Part shown: positions 11,287-33,706 of the stretch, one piece after another
Layout: every line of letters starts with the position of its first letter
Position numbering within the stretch: the first letter of the stretch is position 1
Source of the DNA: Candidatus Thorarchaeota archaeon
GTDB lineage: Archaea > Asgardarchaeota > Thorarchaeia > Thorarchaeales > Thorarchaeaceae
Assembly (NCBI GenBank): GCA_048882385.1
Contig: JBHLRQ010000022.1
Location: forward strand, 1,864-38,256
Direction: 5' to 3'
Length of the DNA stretch: 36,393 bases
The notes under the pieces: generated by a model
Seen by the model: only the letters and a program-made list of their open reading frames with translations
Told to the model about the DNA's origin: nothing
Database searches by the model: none
Made by a program: the position numbers and the translations under genes

Positions 11287-12000
11287 GTGGAGTGGGTATC
11301 GCTGAATAGTGACGTAATTGTTGACCTCCAATCAGTATCGCGTGTATATGACATGGGAGAGATTGAAGTACATGCCCTACGGGGTGTTTCTCTTCAAATC
11401 AAGAGAGGCGCTGCGATTGGAATCATGGGACCCTCAGGTTCAGGAAAGACTACTCTATTGAACCTCATTGGAGCCCTCGATAGACCTACGCATGGAACTG
11501 TTGTTCTCGATAATGTTGACATCACACATATGAACGAGGGCGAGTTAACGAAGGTTAGAAGAAACAAAATCAGTTACGTGTTTCAGTTCTTTAACCTACT
11601 TCCTGTTCTTACAGCTTACGAAAATGTCGAGCTTCCCCTTCTGATCGGTGGTGTAGATGAGGATGCACGGAAAGAGCGTGTTGACCATCTACTCTCACTT
11701 GTTGGGTTGACAGAGCGAGCTGACCACCGTCCAGACGAACTCTCGGGTGGCGAACAACAACGCATTGCAATAGCAAGAGCACTTGCTAAACCAGCCCAAT
11801 CAACTAATAGTGTCATCGTTTTAGCTGATGAACCGACTGGAGACTTGGACTACAACACAGGACAAGAGATCTTGGAAATATTGGTTTCCTTGACAAAGGG
11901 AGAAGGGGGAACTCTAATCACAGTGACACATGATCCAGAAGTCGGAGAGAAGATGGATCGTGTATACAAGATGCGTGATGGTCAAATCGAGAATCCATGA
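11287..12000 (+). CDS. ABC transporter ATP-binding protein, LolD/MacB family
   Basis: GPSGSGKT, YVFQFFNL, LSGGEQQR, LADEPTGDLD, VTHD. Confidence 0.95.
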   Translation: MEWVSLNSDVIVDLQSVSRVYDMGEIEVHALRGVSLQIKRGAAIGIMGPSGSGKTTLLNLIGALDRPTHGTVVLDNVDITHMNEGELTKVRRNKISYVFQFFNLLPVLTAYENVELPLLIGGVDEDARKERVDHLLSLVGLTERADHRPDELSGGEQQRIAIARALAKPAQSTNSVIVLADEPTGDLDYNTGQEILEILVSLTKGEGGTLITVTHDPEVGEKMDRVYKMRDGQIENP

Positions 12001-12009
12001 TAGGGGCAA

Positions 12010-14820
12010 GTGTATATGGCAGCAGTCCCAGCAGGTTATGAAGCCTTTCATAGCATGAGAAGAAAAGGAGTCACATTACTTTGTTTCCTATTGGCTTCTT
12101 CTATGGCAATGGGAATAACGGTCTACGTTGACTCTTACTCGGTTCATGAATGGGATAGGAATTTAGACATCGGGCAGGTCGCTATGGTTGCGCATGGAGA
12201 GAATATTCAAAATTATGTCAATGGGATCAGAGCTATTGATGGCGTGACTAAGGCGGCTTCTATTCGAAGAGGTTCAGGGATTATTCAATATTATGTGAAT
12301 GAAACTTGGGGACAGTATCAGAATGATATCTGGGGAGATATTATTTCACCCGACCAAGATTTTCTGGATACATTCCCTGGATATATTACACTTGAAGAAG
12401 GGTCATTTCCAACCGCAAATGGCTCTCAAATCGCAATACTAGATGCTATGGCGAATGACTATGGTTTTGATGTGGGGGATGTGTTAAATTTCACTGCAGA
12501 TTGGAACGATGAATTTGAACTAATAGAGATAATTGGAATTTACAGCCAGGGAGAAGCTCGAGAGTACGATTACTACTATGGATATTACGAAACCATCGCA
12601 ATTGTTGTTCCATCCATAATTACATATGCTGAATATCAGGTCTACATCGATATTGATAGATCAAGACTGACAGCGTTTAATGCAGGTGGCTCACTCGCAT
12701 ATGCACAAGGAATTGATCAAGCAATTCGTGAACTTGACCCATTATATTCACCAGCAAATCCATGGAGAAGTACATTCTCTGTAAGGAATTACGTCACCAG
12801 AGGGATATTCTCATACATGAATTGGGTTTCAATCACGAGAATGACACAGCTCTTTCGGTCGGTAGCAATTATTCTGCTCATCCTTATGGTAACATTCCTA
12901 GCGATACGTCATAATGTGAATGAAAGAAGGTACGAATCAGGTGTCCTTTATTCAAGGGGAGCTTCAATGGGAGATCTTGATAAAATTGTAAATCGAGAAG
13001 TATTGGTCCTCTCGATATTATCATGTGTTCTCGGCATCCTTATCGGTGCAGGAATAAGTAGAATAGCCCTAGGTGCTACAGGCTTCTTTCAATTTGATTT
13101 TGGGTTGATGGTTTCAGAACCTTTCCTTGTAAGTATCGAGTCCTTGATAATGTCAGCTATTGTTGGCATTGCATTACCAATCCTAGCACTGGGAAGCTAT
13201 CGGATTGTGTATTCAACAAAGAAATCAGTTGATGAGGGACAAGGCAGATTGTCCAAAGTTGTTAAAGGTTTGAATTTTGTCAAATGGGATGTTCTCGTTG
13301 TAATTATAGCAGGACTCCTATTGATGGCTCTATTCTCAGGAGGACAAGAAGCCATGAACAATCCATTCATGGGAATGATTCTTCCTGTTGTACCATTACC
13401 GCTTTTCCTTGGAGTTGCAAGCTTGTCAATCAAAGGACTTAGAGCCGGAGCAAGCAGAATCTCACGTTTCATGGTAAGAATTGTTGGTCAGGTTCCTGCA
13501 GCAGTTGGTATTCGTCGAATTGGAAAAAGCGCATCCTCCGGAGGAGCAGCAGCAATGGTACTTGTTCTGGCAATATGTCTCTCTTGGAATAGTGCTATTG
13601 TTGATGCATCACTCCCAATTACAAAAACTTACCAAGCTCAGCTCAGTGTTGGAGCTGATATTACGTTTGGTCTTGATAGCGAAAAAATAGGACTCTGGGA
13701 TAATTTCACACTAAATGTTACATCGCATGAAAGTGTTGTCGGAGCAACATATGTTTCAGAAACAGGATTCTATCTTTCTAGTGGATATGGCGGATACAAC
13801 ACATTTCTTGCTGTGGATGCAAGAGAATATAGTAAGATTGGATACCACTATCTAGGAGAAAGGCTCAATGACTCAGAGATGGCGAGTTTAATGGAATCAT
13901 TGGCATCAGTCCTCGATGGAGCCATCATATCACAGGACATAGCAGATGAGTATGATCTTGAAGTTGGGGATATTATGCGTGCTTCTGATATCGATGAGGA
14001 GGCAGTGATATTCACATTTCGTATTATTGGGATTGTGCAGTCTCTCCCCGAGATGCCAGCAGAGTACTACGGGTGGTACTATGATTATTATTATTATCCT
14101 CCACCAATGAGTCCGTACTATTATGGGTATGGCATAGTGGGACAGGATAGAGTTATGATCAATAGAGATTACTTACAATCTCTAAAAGGTTCCCTAAATC
14201 AAACTAGCAATTACCTCTGTGTAAGCATTACAGAAAATGCCAACGGAACTCGAATTGGTGAAGACCTTCTTCAAGCAGGAGGTTATGAGGTATTAAATGA
14301 AGATGTTTGGGATGCTGTGTCTACCCAGACTGATGAATACTTGGCACAGGCTACATATCATATCGATAGATCAGTAGATACAATGCTGACAGTACTTACT
14401 GTTGGCACTATAATGGGTGCTTTTGCAATCTATGCGGTTGAAGGAGCTAGAGAAAGGAGGAGAGAGATAGCTCTACTCCGTTCAGCTGGAGCAGAAAATA
14501 GTCTAATTGTCAAATCACAGGGTGCGGAGATGTTAGTCATCATGTTGTTCAGTTTTGTTGTCTTGCTGGGATATTCCCCATTATTCTTGACAACAGCCAT
14601 CAGCTCAGCAGGCAGTTCTCTGTCATCATACTATGAATTGTACCCGATTGCTGTTTTTCCAGTTATTCCATGGATGACGATTATAACAGTGCTTGCCTTT
14701 TTCTTCGTATCAGTATTGATCTTCATAGGTTTTGTTGCCATCTATGGGTCCAGAATCAATCTGGCGCAAACATTGAATGCTACTTGGGCTGAAGCCTCAC
14801 CATATGGAGATGAACTCTAG
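12010..14820 (+). CDS. Large FtsX/MacB-like ABC permease, type A
   Basis: Duplicated TM-extracellular domain-3TM architecture; ERRYESGVLYSRGAS and ERRREIALLRSAGA motifs; GADI. Confidence 0.92.
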   Translation: MYMAAVPAGYEAFHSMRRKGVTLLCFLLASSMAMGITVYVDSYSVHEWDRNLDIGQVAMVAHGENIQNYVNGIRAIDGVTKAASIRRGSGIIQYYVNETWGQYQNDIWGDIISPDQDFLDTFPGYITLEEGSFPTANGSQIAILDAMANDYGFDVGDVLNFTADWNDEFELIEIIGIYSQGEAREYDYYYGYYETIAIVVPSIITYAEYQVYIDIDRSRLTAFNAGGSLAYAQGIDQAIRELDPLYSPANPWRSTFSVRNYVTRGIFSYMNWVSITRMTQLFRSVAIILLILMVTFLAIRHNVNERRYESGVLYSRGASMGDLDKIVNREVLVLSILSCVLGILIGAGISRIALGATGFFQFDFGLMVSEPFLVSIESLIMSAIVGIALPILALGSYRIVYSTKKSVDEGQGRLSKVVKGLNFVKWDVLVVIIAGLLLMALFSGGQEAMNNPFMGMILPVVPLPLFLGVASLSIKGLRAGASRISRFMVRIVGQVPAAVGIRRIGKSASSGGAAAMVLVLAICLSWNSAIVDASLPITKTYQAQLSVGADITFGLDSEKIGLWDNFTLNVTSHESVVGATYVSETGFYLSSGYGGYNTFLAVDAREYSKIGYHYLGERLNDSEMASLMESLASVLDGAIISQDIADEYDLEVGDIMRASDIDEEAVIFTFRIIGIVQSLPEMPAEYYGWYYDYYYYPPPMSPYYYGYGIVGQDRVMINRDYLQSLKGSLNQTSNYLCVSITENANGTRIGEDLLQAGGYEVLNEDVWDAVSTQTDEYLAQATYHIDRSVDTMLTVLTVGTIMGAFAIYAVEGARERRREIALLRSAGAENSLIVKSQGAEMLVIMLFSFVVLLGYSPLFLTTAISSAGSSLSSYYELYPIAVFPVIPWMTIITVLAFFFVSVLIFIGFVAIYGSRINLAQTLNATWAEASPYGDEL

Positions 14821-17658
14821 ATGTTTCTCTTCTCGCGCTTATCTGCCCGAACTCCAGAGGTTCTAGCAACATTACTCATATTTTCATTGTCAAGTGGAGT
14901 TCTCGGCGGAATTCTATTCTATATGGATTCAACAGCGCCTACCGTTCTTGGGGACATGACATCGCAAGTTCCTGTTGATATGGAGATTTCATTCAATTAC
15001 CCGTTCTACTACCAAAATACAACCACAGCTGATGATATCAGAACCATCGTCGAAGAACAAGAGATTGTACAATCGACAGAAATCGTTTCACAAGCACAGT
15101 TCTGGGATTACTGGGAAGCAGACTACCAATACAGTAGGAAAGCGTTTCTCGGAGTGGATAGTTCTGTCTTTGAAACTTTTCCAAAGGCAATAGAACTTGA
15201 TACGGGTTCATTGTCATACGATGACCAATCTTGTGTTGTTGAAAAATCAAGATTCGTTCGAGATGGTCTTCAGATTGGCGGCAACTATAGTCTTTCATTC
15301 TATATACGTGATGAGAATTGGACCGATGTACTTGTCGAGCAAACATTCGTTATCGTCGGAACATTTACGTCGAATATCTTCATGCATTCTCCAATTTGGG
15401 GTCAACCTGAAGTTACTTACTTACAGATGATCACAACTCCAGACGCATTAGAATCAGTTTTTGGGATAATGCCTCCGGATGAATGGGAAGGCTACACAAA
15501 AAGGATTTGGGTAGGATTCGATAAGCAAACCATTCTTGAAACCGACTCTCAAGCGATGCTCGAATCATTGGATTCTGTGAAAAAGCAAATCGAACAAGCA
15601 ACTCTGCCATATGCGATGATAGGCTACGATGGATTCGGACTTATCAATGCAGTCTATGAGTTTGCTGTATGGTCCACCAACGTAAGAGCGATTGCATTAG
15701 CATTTTCGTTACCTTCAGTATTCATGGGCTTGATGCTAATACAATACAATACAAAATTGGTTTCTGATGAACAAAGGCGAGATGTTGGAACTCTTAAAAC
15801 CCGTGGATCCTCAGGAATACAAGCTTTCAGTTGGGTTTTGAGTAGTGCTGTTGCTACAGGTGCTGTAGGAAGTCTGGGCGCAGTTGTGGTAGGTGCCGGA
15901 TCAGCATTGCTTTCTGGATCCGTTCGTGAATTATTTGTATTCAATTTGGAACAATTGGAAGGTTTCGCTCTACTCCTTCATCCAATAGCAGTATTGTTTG
16001 TCTTTCTATTCTCATTTGTGGCAGGAATTCTAATAGCTCTACCAGGAGCCATCAAAGCACTAATCATGACTCCGACTGAAGCCCATGGGATTCTAGAAGG
16101 AGAGATAATTACTGACTCTGAGAAAATGGGAAATCCATCCATTGACCTTCTAGCAGTTGGTGTATCGGGTTGGCTATTGATGCCCATGTTGGCATTCTTT
16201 GCTTTATTTGGTGTAGGAGCATTTGGAGTGGTAATCATCCCATTATTTGCGGTATTCCTATTTGCTTTTACACGTGGACTTTCAAGACCTACAGCTTTGA
16301 TTAAATCGAAACTACTATCCCTAGTACGAAGACCGTCATTAGTTGTTGGTTCCCGATTAATGTCCCGCACTGTTCTGATGTTCAAGAAATCACAAGCTAT
16401 GGGGACGATGTTCATCGCAATGGTGTTCTGTGCAGGTCTATTTGCTTCAATATCAGCTACAACTGGAGACACGCACATGAAACATCTATTTCAGTTTCAG
16501 ACCGGAGCAGATATTGCAGTAGATGTAGATGTATCACTCGAGAATGTAACAATTGATCTTGTGGATAATATAACAGCAGTTGATGGAGTGATGCAAGTAA
16601 GTCCAATGTTACAGACAACAGGATACATACAATATTGGAACTCCTATTACATTGGCATGGGAGAGAATGTTAACAGGAGCATAACAGTTTTTGGAGTAGA
16701 ATCTGAAACTTGGGCTTCAACCGCATTCTTCCTTGACTACTTCACAATGCTAGATTCACCTAGTAACTCAATTGCGAAATTAGCAGATTATTCCGACGAC
16801 AGCGCAAATATCATGTCAACGTTTAAGCCAATTTCAAACTACGTGTTAGATCAGATAACGCAAATACCTAGACCAGTCTATTCCAATGTTCTTGATCTTC
16901 AGATCTTTAGTGCTGATTGGTATAATCAAACGGAATGTTATATCATCGATCTCATGGTCAACACACAAGAATCGTCAATGACTAGTGCCCAGACATATTT
17001 ACCTGGTGAGCCAGACGCCACTGACTTCATAGTCATGGACCTGACATTGCTCCATTCGTGGATTAATTCGACAAAGGTGACAAAGTTCTATGTAGATTTG
17101 GAACCAGGTGCAAACTACACTCAAGCAATGATTGACATATACAATGTTGCACCGGATAGTTTCACTGATGTGGAAGCAGCAAATGAGTTCATTGACGAAG
17201 TGTTGGAATCGAGAGCGACACAATCGATCTACGGTGCATATACACTCAATGTGATTTTCTCCTTAATCTATTTGACCATTGGAATGATAATTGTGACTAT
17301 GGTCAGAGTTAGAGGGCTTCGAAGGCAGTTCTCTGTACTCAGAGCCTTAGGAACTGAAGCAAATTCAATAATCTTCGCAACACTTGCGGATACATCAATT
17401 GGATTGGTACTGGCTGCTTTAATTGGTGGGAGTATTGGAGTAGGTCTTGCATTCCTGCTTCAAAATGTACCATTACTTTACATGGGAATAACAACTTCGC
17501 AACTATGGGCAAGACTACCGGTCGCATTAATATTACCATGGACGCTAATATTGATAGTAATTGGAACAGCTGTGATAGTGTCCCTTATAGCGACCTATTT
17601 CGTTCTTTTGAGAACACTGAAACTCAATATTGCAGAGGAGATACAATACACGGAGTGA
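14821..17658 (+). CDS. Large FtsX/MacB-like ABC permease, type B
   Basis: EQRRDVGTLKTRGSS, RRQFSVLRALGT, TGADIAV. Confidence 0.92.
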   Translation: MFLFSRLSARTPEVLATLLIFSLSSGVLGGILFYMDSTAPTVLGDMTSQVPVDMEISFNYPFYYQNTTTADDIRTIVEEQEIVQSTEIVSQAQFWDYWEADYQYSRKAFLGVDSSVFETFPKAIELDTGSLSYDDQSCVVEKSRFVRDGLQIGGNYSLSFYIRDENWTDVLVEQTFVIVGTFTSNIFMHSPIWGQPEVTYLQMITTPDALESVFGIMPPDEWEGYTKRIWVGFDKQTILETDSQAMLESLDSVKKQIEQATLPYAMIGYDGFGLINAVYEFAVWSTNVRAIALAFSLPSVFMGLMLIQYNTKLVSDEQRRDVGTLKTRGSSGIQAFSWVLSSAVATGAVGSLGAVVVGAGSALLSGSVRELFVFNLEQLEGFALLLHPIAVLFVFLFSFVAGILIALPGAIKALIMTPTEAHGILEGEIITDSEKMGNPSIDLLAVGVSGWLLMPMLAFFALFGVGAFGVVIIPLFAVFLFAFTRGLSRPTALIKSKLLSLVRRPSLVVGSRLMSRTVLMFKKSQAMGTMFIAMVFCAGLFASISATTGDTHMKHLFQFQTGADIAVDVDVSLENVTIDLVDNITAVDGVMQVSPMLQTTGYIQYWNSYYIGMGENVNRSITVFGVESETWASTAFFLDYFTMLDSPSNSIAKLADYSDDSANIMSTFKPISNYVLDQITQIPRPVYSNVLDLQIFSADWYNQTECYIIDLMVNTQESSMTSAQTYLPGEPDATDFIVMDLTLLHSWINSTKVTKFYVDLEPGANYTQAMIDIYNVAPDSFTDVEAANEFIDEVLESRATQSIYGAYTLNVIFSLIYLTIGMIIVTMVRVRGLRRQFSVLRALGTEANSIIFATLADTSIGLVLAALIGGSIGVGLAFLLQNVPLLYMGITTSQLWARLPVALILPWTLILIVIGTAVIVSLIATYFVLLRTLKLNIAEEIQYTE

Positions 17659-18554
17659 CAACTATGACAGAGAATTTAGACGATATTGCTGAACAATACA
17701 AAATTGTGGTCCGAGACCTGATGAAGGTCTACAAACGCGGACAGAAAGAAGTCATTGCCTTGAGGGGTGTTGATTTCGAAGTTCGCCATGGTGAGTTTCT
17801 ATCCATCATTGGTCCGAGCGGAAGTGGCAAGTCAACACTCTTGAAGATGTTAGGAGCCTTGGATACACCAACCGCTGGAGCTGTGTTATATGATGGTCAT
17901 AGTGTCACGATGCTCGACGATAGAAGGGCCATGCTTTATAGAAGACAGAAGGTTGGATTCATCTGGCAGGTAGGCAACCTCGTACCTGGGCTCTCAGCGC
18001 TCAAGAATGTCACTCTTCCAATGAAGCTTGCTGGAGCTCCTACAAAGGTAGCCGAGAAGAGAGCACTAATGCTTTTGGACGCGATGGGACTCAGTCCCAG
18101 GATTGAACATAAACCAAATCAGATGTCTGGTGGAGAAAACCAACGAACTGCAATCTGCGTAGCATTGGCTAACAAACCCGAACTCGTTCTTGGTGATGAA
18201 ATCACTGGAGAGTTGGATAGTGAAACGACCGAGATGGTGATGCAATCATTGAAGATGACCAATGAAGAGTTTGGAACAACAGTAATCAATGTGACACATA
18301 ATCCATCTGTAACAAAGTATGCAGATCGTGTGTTAAGAATCAGGGATGGGCTCATTGAGGGACAGAAACATACGCTCTATGGCGATATTACTGAAGTGGA
18401 TGCCAAGGGGCGATTGGTGATTCCAGAAACTGTTAGACGCCTTGCTGGAATTAAAAAGCGAGTCGTCCTAAAGGCTACGTCTGAGGGTCTTTTGATTAGT
18501 CCACTTAGTACAGATGAAGAGAACAACAATTACAACAATGAAGCAATTCAGTAG
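17655..18554 (+). CDS. ABC ATP-binding protein (LolD/MacB family) with C-terminal AbrB/MraZ-like domain
   Basis: GPSGSGKS, GFIWQ, MSGGENQR, GDEITGELD, VTHN; tail TEVDAKGRLVIPETVRRLAGI; GTG 17655 overlaps the upstream TGA (alternative ATG 17664). Confidence 0.93.
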   Translation: MTTMTENLDDIAEQYKIVVRDLMKVYKRGQKEVIALRGVDFEVRHGEFLSIIGPSGSGKSTLLKMLGALDTPTAGAVLYDGHSVTMLDDRRAMLYRRQKVGFIWQVGNLVPGLSALKNVTLPMKLAGAPTKVAEKRALMLLDAMGLSPRIEHKPNQMSGGENQRTAICVALANKPELVLGDEITGELDSETTEMVMQSLKMTNEEFGTTVINVTHNPSVTKYADRVLRIRDGLIEGQKHTLYGDITEVDAKGRLVIPETVRRLAGIKKRVVLKATSEGLLISPLSTDEENNNYNNEAIQ

Positions 18555-18620
18555 AGCATCAAGAATTAATTGGAGAATCTCTATATTGAGGAAGAAAAGG
18601 CAACAATAGGTGATAGAACG

Positions 18621-18857
18621 ATGAGCAAACAATCACTGCCATGGTCTTATTATGCGGTTATTCTTACATTTGGAATCTTCTTTGCCACCTCGAATATCTA
18701 CATCTTCACGTTGTGGCTAGCACATCCACTCGCAAGTCCATTATGGCTCATAGGCGTTGCTATTGGAGCTATAGGATTAATCTACTCCATTAGTATGGTT
18801 CGAAATCACCAGAGAGAATTAATTGAGAAGAAGAAATTGGAAGAGGAAACCAAGTAG
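18621..18857 (+). CDS. Small 2-TM membrane protein with charged tail
   Basis: AGGTGA SD upstream of ATG 18621; two hydrophobic helices. Confidence 0.78.
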   Translation: MSKQSLPWSYYAVILTFGIFFATSNIYIFTLWLAHPLASPLWLIGVAIGAIGLIYSISMVRNHQRELIEKKKLEEETK

Positions 18858-18944
18858 CTGCCATTTCGGTGAAAAGCGTAATCAGTAAGAAATATCTCTC
18901 GGTGTTGTGCGCTTCCATTAGAATTACGAGGAAGAAGTGGATAG

Positions 18945-21719
18945 TTGATACAACAAGAAACCGTTAGTATAGGTAAGGTAAGGCGGAGAGGACTTACGCT
19001 GGCATGCTTTGTTCTTGCTATCACTCTTGTTGCTGGGATATCAATATACACAGATAGTCTTGCATCTCAACAGTGGGAGATCCACACCTCAATCGGTTCT
19101 GTAGCCATGAAAGTGAAGGGTGATAATGTTCATGTAATAATAGACGACATCTCTTCACTTCCTGAGATTACGAGTCTTAGCACAATTGAAAAAGCACGAG
19201 CGTTCCTAAGAATGGATCAAGATGAGATCTTTCAAGGCTCACCTGATAATCCATTGAATCCTGTCTTTCTAGCTCAAGGCTTTGCGTATTCCTTGAATAG
19301 TGAGTTTATCGAATCGTTTCCATACAAATTTGTTCTAGTTGTTGGACGATGGCCTGAAAATGGATCAGAAATTGCTATTGCATATAATGATGCCGCATAT
19401 TGGAATATTCCTATTGGTCGAATGATGAATTATACACACACTCTAAATGGAGAGAAAAGAACAGTCTTTGTTGTTGGAATATTTACACAGCCTGATTCTG
19501 ATGCCATTGAACTTTATGCAACAGATGCAGTTGCCATTGTCACTGAGGATGTTTTGAATCCTGAAGATAAATCAATTGAGATCTTCGCAAACATCGATAG
19601 AACTATCATAACACCTTTGGATGGCAGGGGAAGTTTAGCTAGACTTCAAGAACTTGATGATAAAATCAAGGCTCTTGATCCAGATTATTCTCCTACAACG
19701 CCATATTCAGAATATATTGTTGAGAATTATTTGGAGGTAGGAGTTAGAGAGTACATTGATTGGTTAAACACAGCAAGACTTCATCAAATCGGGAGATCTC
19801 AGGGAACGATACTTCTTGGGGGTATGTTGTTTCTCATGGCAGTTAGATTCAATACTGACGCCAGAAAAGATGAGTTACGACTTTGGTTCTCCCGAGGAGC
19901 ATCCAATAGAAGAATAACCACCTTAGTAGTGGGAGAGATTCTTGGCATTTCAATATTATCGTGTGTCTTTGCCTTATTTTTTGGAATTGTAGGAAGTCGC
20001 CTTGCTTACGCATCAACTGATTTTCTCCACTTTGAATCAAATTTGCTGAGCTCCTCAAGTTTCATGATAACTTATGACACACTGTTCTTTTTGCTTGCAA
20101 TCAGTATTGTAACACCTCTGATAGTCTATGCCATAAATCAGAGAACGAAAAGTGAAGAAATAATTGAAGAGCAAGAACATGGAAGACTAGCTAGATTCAC
20201 TAGAGCGCTAAGGATGATTCGCTGGGATGCAGCCATTCTTGTGACTGCGCTCCTATTTCTGATCGCTCTTAATATTGGTGGAAACACTGTTCGAAATATT
20301 CCATCACTGATGTTCATATTCTACTATTTACCAATTCCACTCTTTTTGGGAATAGCAAGCCTGCTAAGCAAAATCCTTCTACAAGCATCAAATGTAATCT
20401 CGAAAATCTATTCTAGAATGAATCGCCAAACAGTATCATATTTGGGAATAAGAAGAATTGGAAAAAGGGTGAGATATGCTGCACCGGTAATTCTTGTGAT
20501 TGGAATAACTATGTCAGTTTCTTTGAATTCTATGATTATTGCTGAGTCAATTCCACAAACCCAGATCAATCATTCAAGGTTCTTAATCGGAGCTGATGTG
20601 ACATTTCATCTCAATATAGACTCCAATGAGTATTGGCCCACAATATTTGAGTGGACTGCAAATCATACTAATGTTGAAAGCATAAGTATGGCATCAGTCG
20701 GAACTTTGACTTTTTCCGAAGGAAGTTCAGGCGAGGTAGAATTCATTGCAATCAACCCTAGCGAATTTATCAAGGTTGGCTTCAGTTATTTAGGAATAGG
20801 TCTTGAAGAATCGTCACTATCAATGATTCTAAATGATCTGGAGTTAAACACAGAAGGTGCAATTATTTCTCAGGATGTTGCTAACGAATATGATGTGCAT
20901 ATTGGTGACTCAATTCGTGCCTTTACTATTAATGAAATTGAGGATATCACAGAGTTTAACGTCATTGGAATTGTTCCTGCTCTTTCAGCACCCAACACAA
21001 TAAATGCGATGTTAACTGACCAAGGCGAAGCCCTCGGTTTAGGAAAGGTTTGGGTAAACAGTGAATATTTGTCTTCAATCATCGACCTTAACGGTACATC
21101 AGAGAATTTTCTGTGCGTGAGGACAAAACCGGGTTATAATGGAACAGCTCTGGGAGAAGATTTTGAACTGGAATTTGGTCCATCAGTTCTAGAGGCGGAT
21201 GGTTGGTCTGCAGTTGAATTTGAGGTTGATGCGTTAGTTTCGCAATCCCAATATCAAATTGATAGAGCAATTGATTCCATGCTCGTAATGATTTCAATAT
21301 TTTCAGTTGTATTAGCACTAACGCTATATAGAATTCAAGGTAACTTGCACGGAAAAAGGGAAAATGCAATTCTTAGAACACTAGGAGCAGGAAAAAGGAA
21401 TATAATCTCAACACAAGTTCATGAGCTTCTTGGAATTGTTATATTGACATTTTTCATTCTTGCCATCTTTGGTCCAATTCTAGTAATCAATTCAGTTGAA
21501 GCTGGTATGACAACGTATAGCATCTGGTCTTTTGAATTTCCAATAGGACCCCAAATCTCTATAAACTCAAACATGTTGGGATTCAGTCTTGGATATTTCA
21601 TAATTATTCCAATTGGTTTACTTCTTCTTCTATATGCAAGACCTTCACATGAAAATATGACTCAAGCTTTAGATGCAGGGTGGTCTAAACGAAACTTAGA
21701 TTGGGAGGAGTGGAGTTAG
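18945..21719 (+). CDS. Large FtsX/MacB-like ABC permease, type A paralog
   Basis: RRRGLTLACFVLA..GISIYTDS matches RRKGVTLLCFLLA..GITVYVDS of 12010; RWD, GIRRIGK and YQIDRAIDSML are shared; start uncertain (TTG). Confidence 0.9.
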   Translation: MIQQETVSIGKVRRRGLTLACFVLAITLVAGISIYTDSLASQQWEIHTSIGSVAMKVKGDNVHVIIDDISSLPEITSLSTIEKARAFLRMDQDEIFQGSPDNPLNPVFLAQGFAYSLNSEFIESFPYKFVLVVGRWPENGSEIAIAYNDAAYWNIPIGRMMNYTHTLNGEKRTVFVVGIFTQPDSDAIELYATDAVAIVTEDVLNPEDKSIEIFANIDRTIITPLDGRGSLARLQELDDKIKALDPDYSPTTPYSEYIVENYLEVGVREYIDWLNTARLHQIGRSQGTILLGGMLFLMAVRFNTDARKDELRLWFSRGASNRRITTLVVGEILGISILSCVFALFFGIVGSRLAYASTDFLHFESNLLSSSSFMITYDTLFFLLAISIVTPLIVYAINQRTKSEEIIEEQEHGRLARFTRALRMIRWDAAILVTALLFLIALNIGGNTVRNIPSLMFIFYYLPIPLFLGIASLLSKILLQASNVISKIYSRMNRQTVSYLGIRRIGKRVRYAAPVILVIGITMSVSLNSMIIAESIPQTQINHSRFLIGADVTFHLNIDSNEYWPTIFEWTANHTNVESISMASVGTLTFSEGSSGEVEFIAINPSEFIKVGFSYLGIGLEESSLSMILNDLELNTEGAIISQDVANEYDVHIGDSIRAFTINEIEDITEFNVIGIVPALSAPNTINAMLTDQGEALGLGKVWVNSEYLSSIIDLNGTSENFLCVRTKPGYNGTALGEDFELEFGPSVLEADGWSAVEFEVDALVSQSQYQIDRAIDSMLVMISIFSVVLALTLYRIQGNLHGKRENAILRTLGAGKRNIISTQVHELLGIVILTFFILAIFGPILVINSVEAGMTTYSIWSFEFPIGPQISINSNMLGFSLGYFIIIPIGLLLLLYARPSHENMTQALDAGWSKRNLDWEEWS

Positions 21720-24575
21720 ATGTTTCTTGTTTCTAGAGCTAAGTCACAAGCGCCTGAGATATTAGTCGCTTTCCTAGTTTTTTCATTATCTACAGGTGTA
21801 GTTGGGGGAGTTCTACTCTATCTAGATAGTGTTGGACCTGAGGTTTTGAATGAAATGTCAGTTGATATGCCAATTGGGATGCAGATCCACTTCCGTCCGG
21901 AGTTCTATCAGCAGAATGTGACTACATATAGTGTCATTGAGGAGCGGGTGGCTGCACAAGAACAAGCAGAATCAGTTGAAGGTGTTTCAATTATTGAGAT
22001 TTACGATGAAGAAGTAGAGGATTCCAAATATTCTAGAAATGTAATAATGGGAGTCGAGTCAAGCTTTTTTGAAACATTTTCAGATATTGTTTACACCCCA
22101 TCTGGTACAGCAATTTTGAATGAATCAATTTGCTATATCCAAAGAAACCTACTTTTTGAATTGGGACTTAATATTGGAAGCAACTACACGATTTCTGTGC
22201 CAACAATAGATGAAAACAAGAATCCGATACGAATCAATTCTACCCTTACGGTAGCTGGTGTGTTTGAATCTAATCTCTTTCAAAGGAGGATAAGTTATGA
22301 TCAACCATCTTTCTCTTCGCTTTTTGTAATTACAGCAAGACCTACTCTGCAGACTTATTTTGGTGAGCTTGATCATGCTGGAACCAACAGTTTGCTTGAC
22401 AGAATCTGGGTGAATTTTGATACAAACAAACTCACTCTTAACGATCCTACATCTATGCTTAGTTCTTTGAGGCAAATTGAACGACAGCTAGAGCAGGATA
22501 TTCTACCATATGCTTCAGTAGTTGAGTATGATCTGATTAGTGTAGCTTACCAATATTCCACCTGGGCTACAAGTATGAGAATAATAACGATGGCATTTGC
22601 TGTCCCATCTGTCATTATGGGACTAATGCTGATTCAGTACAATTCAAACCTATTGGCAGATGAAAGGAGAAGAAATGTTGGTGCTCTAAAAACTCGCGGA
22701 GCCACTGGCCGACAAACTATGTACTGGGTTTTGTCGATGTCGATCTTTAACGGAATTGTGGGGAGTTTCGGAGCGATTCTTACAGGAGCAGCGGCTGCTT
22801 TCATGGCTGGTGGAGTGAGAGAGCTGATGACATTCAATCTTTCTCAGATACTGAGCTTCGCAATTAATCTGAAGCTTGAATCAATTGCCATTTTGTTTTC
22901 ATTCTCATTCATATTGGGTTTGATTGTTTCCTTACCTGGAACAATCAATGCGTTTTTGATGTCTCCAGCAGATGCACACAGTGTTATTGAAAGAAAAGAG
23001 CTGACTCCAAAAGGAAGCTTGGGAAACCCTGTTATCTACGCATTGATGCTTAGTATTTCAGGAGTGCTTCTCATTCCGCTATTGGGAGCGATGGAATCCT
23101 TGGGAAGTTTTACCCTAGGTTCTACATTTCTTGGACTGACAGTGATTCTTCTATTAGCAATCTTTATTCTAGGGTTTGTTCTTCTCCTTGCGCAACCAGC
23201 GGCGTCGCTGAAATCTCGAATTCTACTGCGAATTAATAAACAGTCACTAGTTGTTGGAACTCGTGTTGTTGGAAACTCATCACGAATGTTCAGAAGGAGT
23301 GAAGCGATGGCTATCATGTTCATTTCACTCGTCTTCGCCGCAGGAATATTCTCCTCATTGGCGGCTGCTACAGGAAGTAACCATATGAAAGAGCTATTTT
23401 TGTTTGAAACTGGTGCAGATATTGTAATTGATGTAAAGCCAGGATTAACAAATCTGACTTTGGATTTCATTCCCGCAATTGAATCAATAGATGGTGTTTC
23501 AAAAGCAAGTGGGATGATTAAGACTTCGGCATATGTCACATTCTACAGTGACTGGTATGGATACTATCTATTTTGGAACAGATCAATCGAGTTGTATGGA
23601 GTTCAACCAAGCGAGTGGCTTGAATCAGCATTTATCCTTCCATACTTCACATATTATCACGATACAGCATCTTCAATATTGGAATTAGAAGACGAAGAAA
23701 CGAATGTCATTACAAACTTCCAACCTCTTCTTGGCTATGAGATTGATTCACTAGGCCAGCAGGTAGTCAGCTATTCAGACTATATTTCGTTGGAGCTTGT
23801 GGGTCCAACTGAAAAACACTATCTCAACTGTACTATCGTTGATATAATGTCAAATAATCCAAGGGGATTTGAGCCAATAGGCTTTTCACGCTCAGAATAC
23901 ATTGGAGCTTCATATATTCCTGGAGAAGAAGGGAATCATCCTTTCATCATGCTTAACATTGAAAATGTTCACAACTACCTCAATGTTTCATATGTAACTA
24001 GGTTTTATGTAGATCTAAATGAGGGAGTAAATTATACTCGAGTGATTGATGAATTGACAGCTCTCGCTCCTGGCAGTTTTGAGAGTGTGGACTCACCATA
24101 TTTTGGAATTGATGCAATCCGTGACTCAAGAGCAGGTCAAACAATTCATGGAGCATATACACTCAATGTCTTGTTCTCAATTCTCTATCTTACTGCCGGG
24201 GTTACTTTGGTGACAACAATAAAGATTAGAACAATGAGCAAACACTTCTCTCTCCTTCGTGCGCTTGGAACTGATGCTCGTTCTATTATCAGCTCAGTTC
24301 TCATAGATTCTTCATTAAGTGTAATTCTTGGTGGGATAATTGGAGGCCTTACGGGAATTGTACTCACCTTTCTTACATTTCAAATGCCACTGAATTATCT
24401 TGGGCTTTCAAATGAGGTAACATGGGACTATCTCCCACTGGTACTATCTATTCCTGTGCCTTTGCTCATTGCTTTGACTACAATTGCCATTGTATCTTCT
24501 CTGTTAATCAGCTTGGTCATAATTCGGAGGAAACTTGAAACAAATATCGCTGATGATATCCAACATTCAGAATGA
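21720..24575 (+). CDS. Large FtsX/MacB-like ABC permease, type B paralog
   Basis: MFLVSR..PEIL..FSLSTGVVGG matches 14821; ERRRNVGALKTRGA; GAYTLNV; C-terminus NIADDIQHSE. Confidence 0.92.
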   Translation: MFLVSRAKSQAPEILVAFLVFSLSTGVVGGVLLYLDSVGPEVLNEMSVDMPIGMQIHFRPEFYQQNVTTYSVIEERVAAQEQAESVEGVSIIEIYDEEVEDSKYSRNVIMGVESSFFETFSDIVYTPSGTAILNESICYIQRNLLFELGLNIGSNYTISVPTIDENKNPIRINSTLTVAGVFESNLFQRRISYDQPSFSSLFVITARPTLQTYFGELDHAGTNSLLDRIWVNFDTNKLTLNDPTSMLSSLRQIERQLEQDILPYASVVEYDLISVAYQYSTWATSMRIITMAFAVPSVIMGLMLIQYNSNLLADERRRNVGALKTRGATGRQTMYWVLSMSIFNGIVGSFGAILTGAAAAFMAGGVRELMTFNLSQILSFAINLKLESIAILFSFSFILGLIVSLPGTINAFLMSPADAHSVIERKELTPKGSLGNPVIYALMLSISGVLLIPLLGAMESLGSFTLGSTFLGLTVILLLAIFILGFVLLLAQPAASLKSRILLRINKQSLVVGTRVVGNSSRMFRRSEAMAIMFISLVFAAGIFSSLAAATGSNHMKELFLFETGADIVIDVKPGLTNLTLDFIPAIESIDGVSKASGMIKTSAYVTFYSDWYGYYLFWNRSIELYGVQPSEWLESAFILPYFTYYHDTASSILELEDEETNVITNFQPLLGYEIDSLGQQVVSYSDYISLELVGPTEKHYLNCTIVDIMSNNPRGFEPIGFSRSEYIGASYIPGEEGNHPFIMLNIENVHNYLNVSYVTRFYVDLNEGVNYTRVIDELTALAPGSFESVDSPYFGIDAIRDSRAGQTIHGAYTLNVLFSILYLTAGVTLVTTIKIRTMSKHFSLLRALGTDARSIISSVLIDSSLSVILGGIIGGLTGIVLTFLTFQMPLNYLGLSNEVTWDYLPLVLSIPVPLLIALTTIAIVSSLLISLVIIRRKLETNIADDIQHSE

Positions 24576-29601: not shown

Positions 29602-30432
29602 TCAAATGTGTTCTTCAAGCCAACTAAACATGTCAGCGAAGACTTCTTCGCCTCCTTCCTCATGATAGGGTTCATGATATAATCCAGGGTAAAGTTTCCA
29701 TGTTTTATCATCTGACGCGATATTATCATAGAATTCCTTGTTACGATCTGGATCCAGAATTAGATCATCACCAGATTGTTGCACCAAAACAGGTACTGTA
29801 ATCCTATTAGCAGAGTTAAACGCATCTTTACTTGCTTTTAATCCCTCTATGGCATACCTTGGTGTAGCCTTATCAAACCGAAGAGGGTCCTCTTTATTGT
29901 CTTTTACGATTTCAGGATTTCTTGAAATCAATTCATGATCAAGACCATTGTCAAAATACATCTTCACATTAAGTCTTGAGAGGAAAGATGCAATCGCTCT
30001 TGTTGCAGAACCTACTTTCAGACGCTCAGAAACTGCTGGAGCTGGTATGATGATTCCATCAGCCTCACCTGGATGTTTAGTGATATAATGGATGATAAAA
30101 ACAGCTCCAAGAGAATGACCAAAAAGGAACAGCTTCTTGTCCTGGTGAAGCAGTCTCATATATGCAACCAGAGATTCCAAATCATCTGTGTATTCATCAA
30201 AACTCTCGACATGACCTTTACGGCCAGGAAAAGTTCCAAAACCCCGCAAATCGGGAGCGTAGAAAGCATATCCCTCTGATGTAAAACGTTCTCCGAGGTA
30301 TGATAATCGGCCGCTATGAGATCCCAAACCATGTAATCCAAGCACAATCGCTTTAGAATCACCTTCAGGTTTCCAAATACGCAGAAGCATTGTTGTGCCG
30401 TCGAATCCTTGATATGTACTCTCCACAGCCAT
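29602..30432 (-). CDS. Lysophospholipase/monoglyceride lipase (alpha/beta hydrolase)
   Basis: HGLGSHSGR, DLRGFG, GHSLGA, YPGLYHE; start taken at ATG 30432. Confidence 0.92.
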   Translation of the reverse strand: MAVESTYQGFDGTTMLLRIWKPEGDSKAIVLGLHGLGSHSGRLSYLGERFTSEGYAFYAPDLRGFGTFPGRKGHVESFDEYTDDLESLVAYMRLLHQDKKLFLFGHSLGAVFIIHYITKHPGEADGIIIPAPAVSERLKVGSATRAIASFLSRLNVKMYFDNGLDHELISRNPEIVKDNKEDPLRFDKATPRYAIEGLKASKDAFNSANRITVPVLVQQSGDDLILDPDRNKEFYDNIASDDKTWKLYPGLYHEPYHEEGGEEVFADMFSWLEEHI

Positions 30433-30487
30433 ATTAAAAACCGAGAAGACACATGAGCAAAGTGCCCTATGTGTCTTCCGAAAATGA

Positions 30488-31315
30488 TTATGAGCGCTCA
30501 TCTAAGAAAGAGAATTGCATATTCGGATAATCAATGATTGTTTCAAAGTTCTTCAAGAAATCATAGCCTATTATCCCATTTTCGATGAGACATCCTTTGG
30601 GTGAAACTTTACTAAGATCTATGACAACAATCTGGGAATTTGTAATCTGCGCTGGACCCACGGAAAGTGATTCCAGTCCAGCCATTTTTAATTCCACATC
30701 ACCGCCTATACCTCTAGCGATTCCTTGAACAGCCTGAGCTTCAATACCAACTTTCTCAGCAAGTCCGGGCGTCATGACAGTATTTCCAGCTCCGGTATCA
30801 ACAACAAAATTATACGGTCCCTTACCATTGATATGAACTGGAACACCAACCAGATGGGAGTCGTTGATGTATTCAAAAGGACTCCATGCGATGCCGTTGC
30901 CATTAGAATTAGAATCACCTTTCTTGAGTTTGAACTTCTGCTTATTGTAACTGAGAGAAATCGTGCAATGCTTCAAAGTCGTGTATCCTAATACTCCTTC
31001 ACGACCTCCGGAAGTTTTCAATAGCGCATTAACATCTAATACATAGACTTCATCTTTCTCAAACTCAAGTGGTCCTACACCAATAGCTACATCCGCATAC
31101 TTTGTTGGAACACTACCCCCAATTCCATGTGCTTCCTTTTTGCTACCCATATGTGTAACAATTCCTAAGCTCTCTGCAAGTTGGGGAGTAAGAGTTGTCA
31201 CAGAAGCACCAGTATCCAAGTCGAAGGTGAATGGTCCTTGACCATTAACCTTGACTGGAACTTTTACGAGACGTGTACCAAAGTCGATTTTCACCTCAAC
31301 CTCCATTGTAGCCAT
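30488..31315 (-). CDS. Tandem two-domain retropepsin-like aspartyl protease
   Basis: FDLDTGAS...GIGG...GVLG and FVVDTGAG...GIGG...GIIG; GAGG upstream of ATG. Confidence 0.92.
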   Translation of the reverse strand: MATMEVEVKIDFGTRLVKVPVKVNGQGPFTFDLDTGASVTTLTPQLAESLGIVTHMGSKKEAHGIGGSVPTKYADVAIGVGPLEFEKDEVYVLDVNALLKTSGGREGVLGYTTLKHCTISLSYNKQKFKLKKGDSNSNGNGIAWSPFEYINDSHLVGVPVHINGKGPYNFVVDTGAGNTVMTPGLAEKVGIEAQAVQGIARGIGGDVELKMAGLESLSVGPAQITNSQIVVIDLSKVSPKGCLIENGIIGYDFLKNFETIIDYPNMQFSFLDERS

Positions 31316-31320
31316 CCTCG

Positions 31321-32139
31321 TTACTCAGGTTTTGTACCAGCAATATAAGCACTGTAAGCGCCATAGAGGCTATTTCCAGCTTTGCTATTAATCCGAGCAT
31401 CGTTGAATCCCGCATCACGCATGTGTTGCAAATATTCCTCATCAAGAATAGCTCCACCAATGCAGCCCGTGTAAGTTATAACTTCATCACGAACTTCCTT
31501 TGGTAGTGGTTTGGAAAGCACAATATCACTTACCATTACACGACCACCGGGCTTTAATACTCGATAGACTTCACGGAATACCTTTCCCTTGTCAGGGGCT
31601 AGATTGATTACACAATTACTGATTACTACATCTACAGAGTTGTCCTCTACAGGCATGTCCTCGATGTCCCCATAACGGAACTCCACGTTTGTTATTCCTA
31701 GCTCTTTAGCATTCTTTTCAGCCTTCTCAATCATGGCAGGTGTCATATCAACACCAATGACCTTTCCTGTTTCACCCACCTTCTTACTAGCGACAAACAT
31801 ATCGAGACCTGCACCACTTCCGAGATCAAGAACGACCTCGCCTTCATTCAAACTAGCGAGAGCAACAGGATTTCCACAGCCTGCAAACGATTCAGTGGCT
31901 CCGGTTGGCATACCCTCAGTGTCATATCCAAGAGCGTTTGCCAAGCTTACTCTTGTAACCTTAGCTTCCTCTTGAGGACCGCAACAACTTGAGGATGTTT
32001 GAGTTGGTCCACAACTTGCATCATTGCAACTCGGAGATTGTTCATCAGAAGTCCAAGTTCCCTCAGCTACTCGGGAATATGCGTCCCGTACAGCTTCTTT
32101 GATCTCATCAGATTTCATTTCACTTACTTTCTTCGTCAT
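31321..32139 (-). CDS. arsM: Arsenite S-adenosylmethionine methyltransferase
   Basis: N-terminal CC, FAGCGNP, VLDLGSGAGLD, VISNCVINL, GCIGGA; start taken at ATG 32139 rather than 32247. Confidence 0.92.
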   Translation of the reverse strand: MTKKVSEMKSDEIKEAVRDAYSRVAEGTWTSDEQSPSCNDASCGPTQTSSSCCGPQEEAKVTRVSLANALGYDTEGMPTGATESFAGCGNPVALASLNEGEVVLDLGSGAGLDMFVASKKVGETGKVIGVDMTPAMIEKAEKNAKELGITNVEFRYGDIEDMPVEDNSVDVVISNCVINLAPDKGKVFREVYRVLKPGGRVMVSDIVLSKPLPKEVRDEVITYTGCIGGAILDEEYLQHMRDAGFNDARINSKAGNSLYGAYSAYIAGTKPE

Positions 32140-32273
32140 CTTTTGCTTTCTCCTGAGAACCACAACATCCTGATGCTTGTCCCTGTCCAGTTTTTGTCCC
32201 TTCTGCAACCTGAGAGTATGCATCGCGAACAGCCTTTTTGATCTCATCAGATTTCATTTCACTTACTTTCTTC
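32098..32273. repeat. Exact 37-bp direct repeat (32098-32134 and 32237-32273)
   Basis: TTTGATCTCATCAGATTTCATTTCACTTACTTTCTTC occurs twice, offset 139 bp. Confidence 0.95.
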
Positions 32274-32278
32274 ATCAT
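32120..32278 (-). CDS. 52-aa small ORF paralogous to the ArsM N-terminus, with CCG motif (not in ORF track)
   Basis: MMKKVSEMKSDEIKKAVRDAYSQVAEGTKTGQGQASGCCGSQEKAKDDEESK*; GGTGG SD; mostly synonymous divergence from arsM. Confidence 0.68.
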   Translation of the reverse strand: MMKKVSEMKSDEIKKAVRDAYSQVAEGTKTGQGQASGCCGSQEKAKDDEESK

Positions 32279-32415
32279 ATAACCACCGTTCTGTTTGGAT
32301 TAGAATTTGAAATTTCATCGTCACCACAAGATAATTGACATGAGAACTTAGACTTGGTTTTGATTTGGATCTCACGTTTTGATGGAGTTTCCTTAGCAAC
32401 TTTGTCTTGAATCAT
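32275..32415 (-). CDS. 46-aa small ORF with CxxxC (not in ORF track)
   Basis: MIQDKVAKETPSKREIQIKTKSKFSCQLSCGDDEISNSNPNRTVVI*; GGTGA SD; ATGA overlap with the next ORF. Confidence 0.55.
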   Translation of the reverse strand: MIQDKVAKETPSKREIQIKTKSKFSCQLSCGDDEISNSNPNRTVVI

Positions 32416-32428
32416 TCAATCACCAACT

Positions 32429-32500
32429 ATATTGGGTGTCCAATATTTGTTGATATTGGGCATCCTATATATACATTTAAATGTATCGGACATCCAATAT
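32429..32500. promoter_or_regulatory. Divergent promoter with three ATATTGG-N4-CCAATAT boxes and a palindromic TATA element
   Basis: Boxes at 32429-46 (perfect), 32453-70 and 32483-500; ATACATTTAAATGTAT palindrome at 32471-86. Confidence 0.8.
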
Positions 32501-32506
32501 TTCAAC

Positions 32507-32878
32507 ATGAACGAGGAATCCGACCTTGCCCAGTGTTGTCCGCCCGACTGTTGTGACATGAGAGGATTTCTTACATTCCAGATTCTATGGGAGCTTGATA
32601 GGGAAGAACTGAATGGACAGCAGATCGCTGAAAGAATTGCCAAGAGGAGGGGTACAAAACCTACTCCAGGAACAATCTATCCTGCGCTCAAAGAGTTGAA
32701 GAAAGGCAAGTACATCAAGGGTACAAAAGATGGCAGGCAGATTGTCTATCGTCTTACTGAAGAAGGTGAGAAAGCGCTTCTAGACGCATCACGATATTTC
32801 ATTCAAGCGTTTGGTGACATCGCTGAAGATGTCAAAGTGAAAGTTATAGTGATAGAAGGCGACGATTGCGACTGCTAA
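32507..32878 (+). CDS. PadR-family winged-helix regulator with Cys-rich termini
   Basis: MRGFL...IL, PTPGTIYPALKEL...G, Y.LTEEG; CCPPDCC at the N-terminus and CDC at the C-terminus; start ATG 32507. Confidence 0.9.
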   Translation: MNEESDLAQCCPPDCCDMRGFLTFQILWELDREELNGQQIAERIAKRRGTKPTPGTIYPALKELKKGKYIKGTKDGRQIVYRLTEEGEKALLDASRYFIQAFGDIAEDVKVKVIVIEGDDCDC

Positions 32879-33100: not shown

Positions 33101-33706
33101 ATGCCGAGACCTGAACCAAAAACGAAAATTGAGAACGTCGTTGCTTCTGTTGTTCTCAATCAACGTCTTGATCTTGATGAGATTGCAGCCACAATGCCTA
33201 ATGTTGAATTTGATCCTGAACAGTTCCCAGGACTTGTATACAGATTGAAGAAACCAAAGACTGCTACATTGATCTTTAATTCTGGCAAGATGGTCTGCAC
33301 TGGCGCGAAGAGTGAGAAAGAAGCAAAGCGTGCAGTTCATAAAATTGTAAAGAACATCAAAGAGGCTGGCATTGAGATCACCGGTAAACCGGAAATCATT
33401 GTACAGAACATTGTCGCAAGTGCAAGCCTTGGCGCAGAGTTGAATCTTGAACTCGCAGCAATGAAACTTGAGAATACATTGTATGAGCCTGAGCAATTCC
33501 CAGGTCTGATATACAGGATGAGAGACCCCAAAGTTGTCATTCTGCTGTTCGGTTCTGGAAAGCTTGTCATCACTGGTGCTAAATTCGAGCCACAGATTGA
33601 TGAGGCAGCATTGAAAGTAATGGATCGACTTCTTGAACTAGGTGTCATGAGAATCCCCGAAGGTGAAGATTGGGGTCTCGAGGACTACGAAGAAGGCGAA
33701 TGGTGA
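33101..33706 (+). CDS. tbp: TATA-box-binding protein
   Basis: Two repeats: IENVVAS..PEQFPGLVYR..IFNSGKMVCTGAK and VQNIVAS..YEPEQFPGLIYR..LFGSGKLVITGAK; acidic tail; TTATATA at 33057-63; start ATG 33101. Confidence 0.97.
   Translation: MPRPEPKTKIENVVASVVLNQRLDLDEIAATMPNVEFDPEQFPGLVYRLKKPKTATLIFNSGKMVCTGAKSEKEAKRAVHKIVKNIKEAGIEITGKPEIIVQNIVASASLGAELNLELAAMKLENTLYEPEQFPGLIYRMRDPKVVILLFGSGKLVITGAKFEPQIDEAALKVMDRLLELGVMRIPEGEDWGLEDYEEGEW

Follow-up and report, generated by a model that had tools for sequence, protein, structure and literature searches.

How should one read a gene that is preceded by a truncated copy of its own beginning? The question is raised by a 36,393-nt stretch of DNA from a Candidatus Thorarchaeota archaeon (assembly GCA_048882385.1, contig JBHLRQ010000022.1; hereafter the window), in which arsM, the gene for an As(III) S-adenosylmethionine (SAM) methyltransferase, follows and overlaps a small open reading frame (ORF) whose product repeats the N-terminus of the enzyme. 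We find that this small ORF is a partial duplicate of the arsM 5′ end in real DNA, and that it is recurrent, open and constrained at the amino-acid level. Our reading, for which we see an even chance, is that it is a real translated gene encoding a free-standing ArsM N-terminal module (helix plus vicinal cysteines) that is co-expressed with arsM, would bind As(III) and would act on ArsM.

The original prediction, made from the letters of the sequence, described a hidden 52-aa peptide repeating the ArsM N-terminus. The ORF is indeed present (32120–32278, minus strand), with the translation noted at the time, and it is retrieved when the genome is searched in six frames with ArsM (E = 1.2e-9, 66% identity). 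Codon by codon, positions 1–14 are the same as in arsM save codon 2 (ATG/ACG), which accounts for the 37-bp identical block that had been pointed out, and codons 15–28 differ by 10 synonymous and 2 replacement changes (K15E, Q23R), as claimed. The likeness ends at codon 29, and the CC motif and QEKAK/QEEAK realign past a 14-residue gap. The ORF also has the Shine–Dalgarno (SD) sequence of its own and the overlap with the arsM start that had been reported, its stop codon lying 20 nt inside arsM. The start coordinate needs correction: 32098 lies inside arsM, at the far end of arsM's own copy of the identical block, and not in the small ORF. Note that the 37-nt block is not by itself a footprint of recombination, because orthologous arsM genes are conserved at the nucleotide level over the 39 nt that follow the start (3–6 differences of 39 between the resident gene and close species; 5–10 of 39 in the next block), and because the arsM of another genome (G002), with 2 differences of 39 in the first block, comes as near to the small ORF as the resident arsM does.

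The small ORF is not in itself an ArsM. It matches positions 2–40 of the 272 positions of the ArsM model NF008823 (E = 1.3e-5), with 24.9 bits for a cut-off of 263. This is its sole NCBIfam match, and a Pfam scan returned 0 families and no methyltransferase domain. It carries only the first of the four ArsM cysteine positions (CC 38–39), GCGNP, SNCV and TGCIGG being absent. The neighbouring arsM gene scores 314.4 bits against the same cut-off of 263 and has an ArsM fold and all four Cys motifs; its product has 5evj and 4fr0 as best matches in the PDB, and CrArsM, CmArsM and human AS3MT at the top of the Foldseek results.

The source genome is a metagenome-assembled genome (MAG) of 256 contigs, 95.3% complete and with 4.94% contamination. 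Such an assembly could conceivably join in tandem two arsM alleles of co-occurring strains, an artefact that the original prediction had entertained, and a related species with a G013-type arsM upstream sequence does co-occur in one of the two sequencing runs discussed here (X2). We searched Logan contigs (k = 31) of public runs for the region. As expected, these contigs break exactly at the 37-nt repeat. In run X2 (study P2), 32105–32266 lies on a 162-nt contig that has 0 mismatches and crosses the 32139/32140 junction, at a depth of 24.1 compared with 27.2 and 24.4 for its flanks; in run X1 (study P1), contigs cover 32105–32209 and 32180–32255 at depths of 19.9 and 13.8, the flanks being at 16.5 and 14.5. 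The spanning check proposed along with the prediction thus came out positive: contigs of two independent studies cross the junction between the peptide end and the arsM start without mismatch and at flank depth, and allelic variation is unable to make such a junction. In addition, a 52-aa protein from another MAG (P0005, 77% identical to the small ORF) ends alike, in ...KDDEESQ, which corresponds to an arsM start MTKKVS read one base off; judged from this protein sequence, the overlapping junction exists independently. Given also the like architecture in six other species genomes and on metagenome contigs, a chimeric origin is barely credible.

We then determined how widely the arrangement occurs by six-frame profile searches with the peptide profile in which stop codons were read through. 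All genomes compared are MAGs, and the counts apply to the genomes searched rather than to clades. An intact small ORF in tandem with arsM was found in 6 of the 28 genomes of the genus, arsM itself being present in 27 of them; the expectation that relatives carry the same small ORF upstream of arsM is thus borne out for these 6 and fails for the other 21 arsM-bearing genomes. Across 400 Asgard genomes there were seven tandems, all in one family (f1), the seventh (G378) belonging to another genus of that family; in three further Asgard genomes with two matches, these lie on separate contigs. Copies were also present at five of eight metagenome loci. A collection of 5.8 billion proteins contains 15 short relatives, of which all that are named are Thorarchaeota entries called "hypothetical protein". 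At least 11 distinct short proteins sit on multi-kb contigs, and every one that has a source name is from Thorarchaeota or Promethearchaeota. An exhaustive profile search gave 40 matches, mostly short; of the 10 looked up, 2 are on multi-kb contigs named Thorarchaeota or Promethearchaeota, and the others are probably cut ArsM N-termini, since they lie on contigs of 408–3771 nt or are marked partial. Among these 10 of 40 matches, no case beyond the Asgard archaea was established. A full-length second arsM, which the prediction had asked to be looked for, stands beside the small ORF in no relative. As far as seen, the small ORF therefore occurs in one Asgard family only, and in a minority of its members.

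The copy in the other genus (locus L062, G378:C388, 1179–2211) is a tandem copy of 71–73 aa with both CC motifs and about 80% protein identity to its own ArsM N-terminus, and both it and its arsM seem to use non-ATG starts. A DNA search with this copy in the 17 genomes of its genus found no near-identical donor, the best matches being its own arsM (75%) and other species (71–77%).

Selective constraint is visible both in the reading frame and in the amino-acid sequence. All eight distinct DNA copies are open over 48–71 codons, the lone stop flagged being the terminal TAA of the G020 copy itself. Shuffled copies stay open in 1.1–3.4% of trials, copy by copy, and the frame in the window in 2.0% of 20000 composition-preserving shuffles. 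The CC pair is invariant in all copies (alignments A1 and A2). By Nei–Gojobori counts on a 24-codon helix block (10 pairs of 5 genomes), the copies differ between species with a proportion of synonymous differences (pS) of 0.54–0.99 and a proportion of nonsynonymous differences (pN) of 0.14–0.23, which gives pN/pS values of 0.16–0.43. For ArsM, the values are 0–0.21 in the helix and 0.05–0.10 in the core, whose pS of 0.63–0.83 within the genus means that synonymous sites are saturated. ORF1, the short frame just upstream, has a median pN/pS of 0.78 over 300 pairs at the same loci, and serves as an internal control for a leader ORF that is kept open but is indifferent to its sequence.

One form of the small ORF, found in genome G009 and at metagenome locus L070, has lost similarity in the helix and thus cannot be refreshed from arsM. 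It nonetheless keeps its frame, its length (48 aa) and both CC motifs, and its two members differ by a pS of 0.42 and a pN of 0.15 (ratio 0.37, p = 0.013); p-values for such ratios are merely indicative, because pairs are non-independent and sequences short. Over 69 codons, the G378 copy differs from its own arsM by a pS of 0.73, which amounts to saturation of synonymous sites, and a pN of 0.11. A decaying pseudogene does not look like this: none of the eight copies is broken, and pN/pS is low both in the helix block and in the G009/L070 form. The proposal that the frame was conserved as protein is upheld by the eight intact frames, the CC pair that is always kept, the ORF's own SD and a pN/pS well below 1, and the ORF behaves as a small gene standing on its own; what has to be qualified is the origin of the purifying-selection signature in the 14 codons, as part of it may be inherited from a functional arsM through duplication or conversion.

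What could such a peptide do? In the AlphaFold2 model of ArsM (predicted template modelling score, 0.77), a helix at residues 10–26 (predicted local distance difference test (pLDDT), 81–85) is followed by a disordered Cys-rich linker at residues 35–61 (pLDDT <50) and by the methyltransferase core. The peptide alone is predicted to form a helix at residues 10–25, the rest being disordered, and the peptide/ArsM helices have pLDDT values of 72–85. An ESM Atlas search with the peptide returned unnamed clusters only, at 0.90–0.92 and with no structure. We also modelled the peptide with the ArsM core (residues 62–272), using alignments built in this analysis and three controls. The complex scored 0.44 and the best control 0.01; the runs agreed in at least 66% of contacts, and the partner pLDDT was at least 56. 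The mark applied is passed by 58 of 80 solved complexes and by 2 of 110 mismatched pairs, and passes at a score of 0.60 or below comprise only 7 of the 80 solved complexes together with both passing mismatches. The models thus hint at docking of the peptide on the ArsM core, although the pass may reflect mere likeness to the native arm, since solved ArsM structures contain the homologous N-terminus.

According to passages of PMC6138428, ArsM has four conserved cysteines (Cys44, Cys72, Cys174 and Cys224 in CmArsM), the first methylation depends on its N-terminal Cys pair, which is also involved in a disulfide cascade, and the enzyme receives As(III) through thiol transfer from As(GS)3. We propose that a partial tandem duplication of the arsM 5′ end copied a stretch that runs from the ribosome-binding site through the start codon and the N-terminal helix to the first conserved Cys pair. 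The small ORF would then be part of the arsM transcript, between ORF1 and arsM, under the control of the divergent Cys-rich PadR-type regulator; a transcript shared by the three ORFs is likely because there is no gap between them and they overlap. The product would consist of an amphipathic helix and a flexible loop with vicinal cysteines. This CC loop would bind As(III) or exchange thiol and disulfide, the helix would dock the peptide on the catalytic core of ArsM as the enzyme's own N-terminus does, and the peptide would pass As(III) on for methylation or buffer it, or would provide the reaction with reducing equivalents. A bolder version would make the duplicated module part of a thiol-based arsenite relay, as a dedicated As(III) carrier (a surrogate of As(GS)3) that docks through its helix and delivers to the catalytic cysteines, or would have it render arsM translation arsenite-responsive together with ORF1; we regard this version as a long shot.

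Several points weigh against a translated peptide that acts on ArsM. The docking was obtained with an ArsM cut at residue 62 and does not bear on the full-length enzyme, whose own N-terminus, being covalently attached, would win the competition with a free copy for this site. The peptide has two cysteines only; the As(III) sites of ArsD use three (Cys12-Cys13-Cys18), according to passages of PMC12415280. Outside [ST][SG]CCG its tail is weakly constrained, with a pN/pS of 0.45–0.76, nearer neutral, and among the public sequencing runs searched there was no RNA run carrying 31800–32520. The peptide is missing from 21 of the 27 arsM-bearing genomes of the genus, and its presence on the ArsM tree requires 7 changes for 8 rows, being no more clustered than shuffled labels; so patchy a distribution means that the small ORF is dispensable or often lost. 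Finally, in a DNA tree built from the helix block, the copies of G000, G020 and G043 each fall within the arsM subclade of the genome that carries them, a single peptide clade is rejected (approximately unbiased test, p = 0.030, 72 columns), and the copy in the window has 8–12 differences of 39 nt from the arsM alleles of its clade compared with 14–19 of 39 from other peptides. With the helix block thus following the resident arsM, some of the apparent constraint stems from gene conversion or repeated duplication. The junction between small ORF and arsM also varies: it is −20 nt here and, at other loci, +4 to +38 nt, GGTGAT then being separate. These comparisons suggest either several 5′-end duplications or one old duplicate overwritten repeatedly from arsM, and part of the constraint could be borrowed.

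Taken to its end, this line of thought makes the small ORF a neutral by-product: the arsM 5′ end would duplicate easily, its copies would be either refreshed by conversion from arsM or cleanly deleted, so that a survey meets copies that look intact or no copy at all, and the purifying signal would come from arsM. The alike SD–ATG–first-codon sequences at ORF1, the copy and arsM could act as the direct repeats on which such events are based. Besides the helix block that follows the resident arsM, the weakly constrained tail and the junctions that vary from −20 to +38 nt, this explanation accommodates the G020 copy, which shares the lineage-specific RKTYSKVA with its arsM at a pS of only 0.37, the G378 copy, which mirrors the two-CC layout of its own arsM, and the scattered presence of the small ORF with its clean absence elsewhere, the stop codon of ORF1 then lying directly on the arsM ATG. 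However, the copies of G013 and G017 and the second block of the copy in the window are near synonymous saturation with respect to the resident arsM (pS 0.57–0.68), with a pN of 0.03–0.28, so that no recent conversion has occurred there. The G009/L070 form is beyond conversion and yet has retained its frame, its 48 aa, both CC motifs and a pN/pS of 0.37. The single-CC middle part common to the copy in the window and P0005 is in no arsM found, and no copy among the eight is broken even though the searches read through stops. We therefore consider a neutral by-product unlikely, if well short of far-fetched. The same middle part bears on another suggestion of the original prediction, a remnant of a second arsM allele: here too it weakens the case that no arsM with this part was found, while the helix half does fall within the arsM allele diversity of its own clade. 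A search with the peptide for longer proteins gave none of 92–2000 aa at E ≤0.001, which is weak evidence, as it drew on just 7 candidates.

A translated peptide, as we favour it, has also to be weighed against a purely regulatory upstream ORF (uORF), and here ORF1 is instructive. It is present in 25 distinct copies across the genus, upstream of arsM or of the small ORF, is always open over 39–47 aa, and has a stop codon that overlaps the next ATG. It has one nearly invariant Cys and blocks conserved at the nucleotide level, and its amino-acid change is near neutral; annotations hardly ever include it (4 proteins in the 5.8-billion collection). We also considered ORF1 as an older copy of the arsM 5′ end, given its MTEDKV.. 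start resembling MTEMKKV.. and its SCxxSCG motif, and rejected this on hhalign probabilities of 0.4% with ArsM and 3.2% with the peptides. The small ORF has what is expected of a translated uORF or a coupled gene, namely a ribosome-binding site, a start codon, the same strand as arsM and a stop/start overlap or a short spacer: GGTGAT or GGTGGT precedes every copy, and every arsM in relatives.

In the uORF explanation, the small ORF would be, together with ORF1, a leader whose translation sets that of arsM through coupling and re-initiation or, in this genome, through occlusion of the arsM SD and start codon, its cysteines perhaps making it arsenite-sensitive. The stop codon of ORF1 overlaps the ATG of the copy, and in the window the copy ends 20 nt beyond the arsM ATG and holds the only SD-like motif of arsM, GGAG; with this motif and the start codon inside the small ORF, translation of the latter must affect arsM initiation. 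The G013 copy has its stop codon within the GGTGAT of arsM. ORF1 itself behaves like a uORF, all 25 copies having an open frame whose amino acids change almost neutrally apart from a nearly invariant Cys, and RNAalifold pairs a conserved ATCATC inside ORF1 with the next SD, a weak pairing with 1 compensatory pair. Coupling is not uniform, however: in G017, G043, G020, G009 and L070, there is a 19–38-nt spacer carrying a separate SD between the copy and arsM. Moreover, a purely positional uORF needs no constraint such as the helix pN/pS of 0.16–0.43, to be compared with 0.78 for ORF1, and most relatives regulate arsM without the copy. Literature searches on related terms gave no arsenite-sensing leader peptide. 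This explanation we hold to be improbable. To our knowledge, an arsenite-sensing leader peptide has no precedent.

For the leader, RNAalifold returned nothing beyond the operator palindrome and the weak anti-SD helix, and an Rfam scan of 31900–32600 gave nothing near gathering scores (mir-450, 24.6 for 60; sR33, 18.7 for 37). Here 32204–32209 pairs with the interior of ORF1 (alignment A5, columns 153–158 / 204–209; −6.4 kcal/mol), in what may be a helix that sequesters the SD and would be opened by translation of ORF1. A frameshift fusion or TGA read-through leading to a longer ArsM was considered as well, the arsM frame being open for 36 codons upstream in the window, but it was set aside as junctions differ among species.

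The features of the locus and its neighbours are collected in Table 1.

Table 1. Features of the arsM locus and of other parts of the window (positions as in the window)
Feature	Position	Strand	Remarks
ORF1, 46 aa	32275..32415	(-)	Upstream ORF; its TGA overlaps the small-ORF ATG as ATGA
Small ORF, 52 aa (51 from second ATG)	32120..32278	(-)	Paralog of ArsM residues 1-60
Small-ORF parts, in order			N-terminal helix, short linker, vicinal Cys38-Cys39, variable tail
arsM, As(III) SAM methyltransferase, 272 aa	31321..32139	(-)	Cys motifs SSSCCG, FAGCGNP, SNCVINL, YTGCIGG
37-nt identical block, small-ORF copy	32237..32273	(-)	
37-nt identical block, arsM copy	32098..32134	(-)	
GGTGGT, Shine-Dalgarno-like	32282..32287	(-)	4 nt 5′ of the small-ORF ATG, within the last codons of ORF1
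GGAG	32150..32153	(-)	10 nt 5′ of the arsM ATG, within the small-ORF coding sequence; sole SD-like motif for arsM in this genome, putative role
Palindrome ATATTGGnnnnCCAATAT, 3 copies	32425..32502	.	Flank an AT-rich TATA-like stretch between the divergent genes; putative operator
PadR-family regulator	32507..32878	(+)	Divergent; PF03551, 43.5 bits; N-terminal CCPPDCC, C-terminal DDCDC
TBP gene	33104-33706		
Protein with two Asp_protease_2 domains, then Hydrolase_4 (S33) protein	29602-31315	(-)	Protease starts 5 nt after arsM; the two overlap by 14 nt
Ras/Roc-family small GTPase domain protein	8682-9980	(+)	
Two consecutive ABC-ATPase + double FtsX/MacB permease modules	11287-24575	(+)	

The genes for the Asp_protease_2 and Hydrolase_4 proteins are possibly co-transcribed with arsM, and the protease gene lies 3′ of arsM in relatives too, as seen in tblastn side matches. 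Proteins with Ras/Roc-family small GTPase domains, one of which is encoded in the window, are typical of Asgard archaea. The TBP gene, like the names carried by near-identical database proteins, supports an uncultured Asgard archaeon of the Thorarchaeota type as the source.

Upstream of ORF1, the three palindromes (17–19 nt) overlap the divergent promoters, and the proximal copy is conserved in 22 aligned relatives. The divergently transcribed PadR-family protein has an N-terminal CC(P/A)P(D/E)CC motif, mostly CCPPDCC, in every homologue listed from the loci examined, both in Thorarchaeaceae and in a second family; its C-terminal D-C-x-C motif or Cys pair is conserved in most of those listed. 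As a candidate As(III)-responsive repressor, the protein would belong to the PadR type and not to the ArsR/SmtB type. No paper on such a PadR-type As(III) regulator was found by title or abstract.

In organisms from microbes to humans, arsenic biomethylation is the work of ArsM/AS3MT, and it is still debated what the flexible N-terminal Cys arm of this enzyme does. A free-standing copy of the arm that several species have kept intact would provide a natural experiment as to whether the arm can work in trans, as an As(III) donor or as a redox partner; if the arsenite relay were real, a catalytic enzyme would repeatedly have given rise to a separate gene for its own substrate-capture arm. If, on the other hand, the copies are a neutral by-product, they are a minor curiosity of operon evolution. 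The locus also illustrates the origin of small proteins in partial duplications of a gene's 5′ end and their persistence alongside the parent gene, with which they evolve in concert, and it brings to light a small-gene family that some annotations call only "hypothetical protein".

Among known systems, the closest to the small ORF is the N-terminus of ArsM/AS3MT itself (NF008823; Cys44 region of CmArsM), to which it is homologous and with which it shares the predicted helix, the flexible Cys loop and the first conserved Cys, the correspondence of its CC pair with CmArsM Cys44 being read from the order of motifs and not from an alignment to CmArsM. Unlike ArsM, it is free-standing, has no methyltransferase domain and is without the other three conserved cysteines; compared with the resident ArsM, its Cys linker is 14 residues shorter and has one Cys motif instead of two. 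Literature searches of limited scope turned up neither a stand-alone ArsM N-terminal peptide nor an ORF upstream of arsM.

ArsD offers a possible functional analogy, as a small ars-operon protein that uses vicinal cysteines to capture As(III) and hands it over to a partner, according to passages of PMC12415280. By contrast with ArsD, to which it has no sequence relation and none of whose models it matched, the peptide has 52 aa, one helix and two cysteines instead of about 120 aa with Cys12-Cys13-Cys18, and its partner would be ArsM; no member of the ArsA, ArsB or ACR3 family was present among the 26 ORFs of the window scanned with Pfam. Leader peptides and coupled operon genes resemble the small ORF in being short, 5′ in the arsM transcript, with overlapping stop and start codons and a downstream SD inside the frame; unlike leader peptides, the small ORF has a constrained amino-acid sequence, is homologous to the enzyme that it would regulate and is absent from most orthologous operons. 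With partial tandem duplicates that evolve in concert, finally, it shares the direct repeat of the 5′ end and a helix block that groups with the resident parent gene, but it is not decaying, frame and CC pair being intact in every copy. Seen against these systems, the small ORF appears to encode a small protein that originated when the 5′ end of a gene was duplicated, and that may be a thiol carrier.

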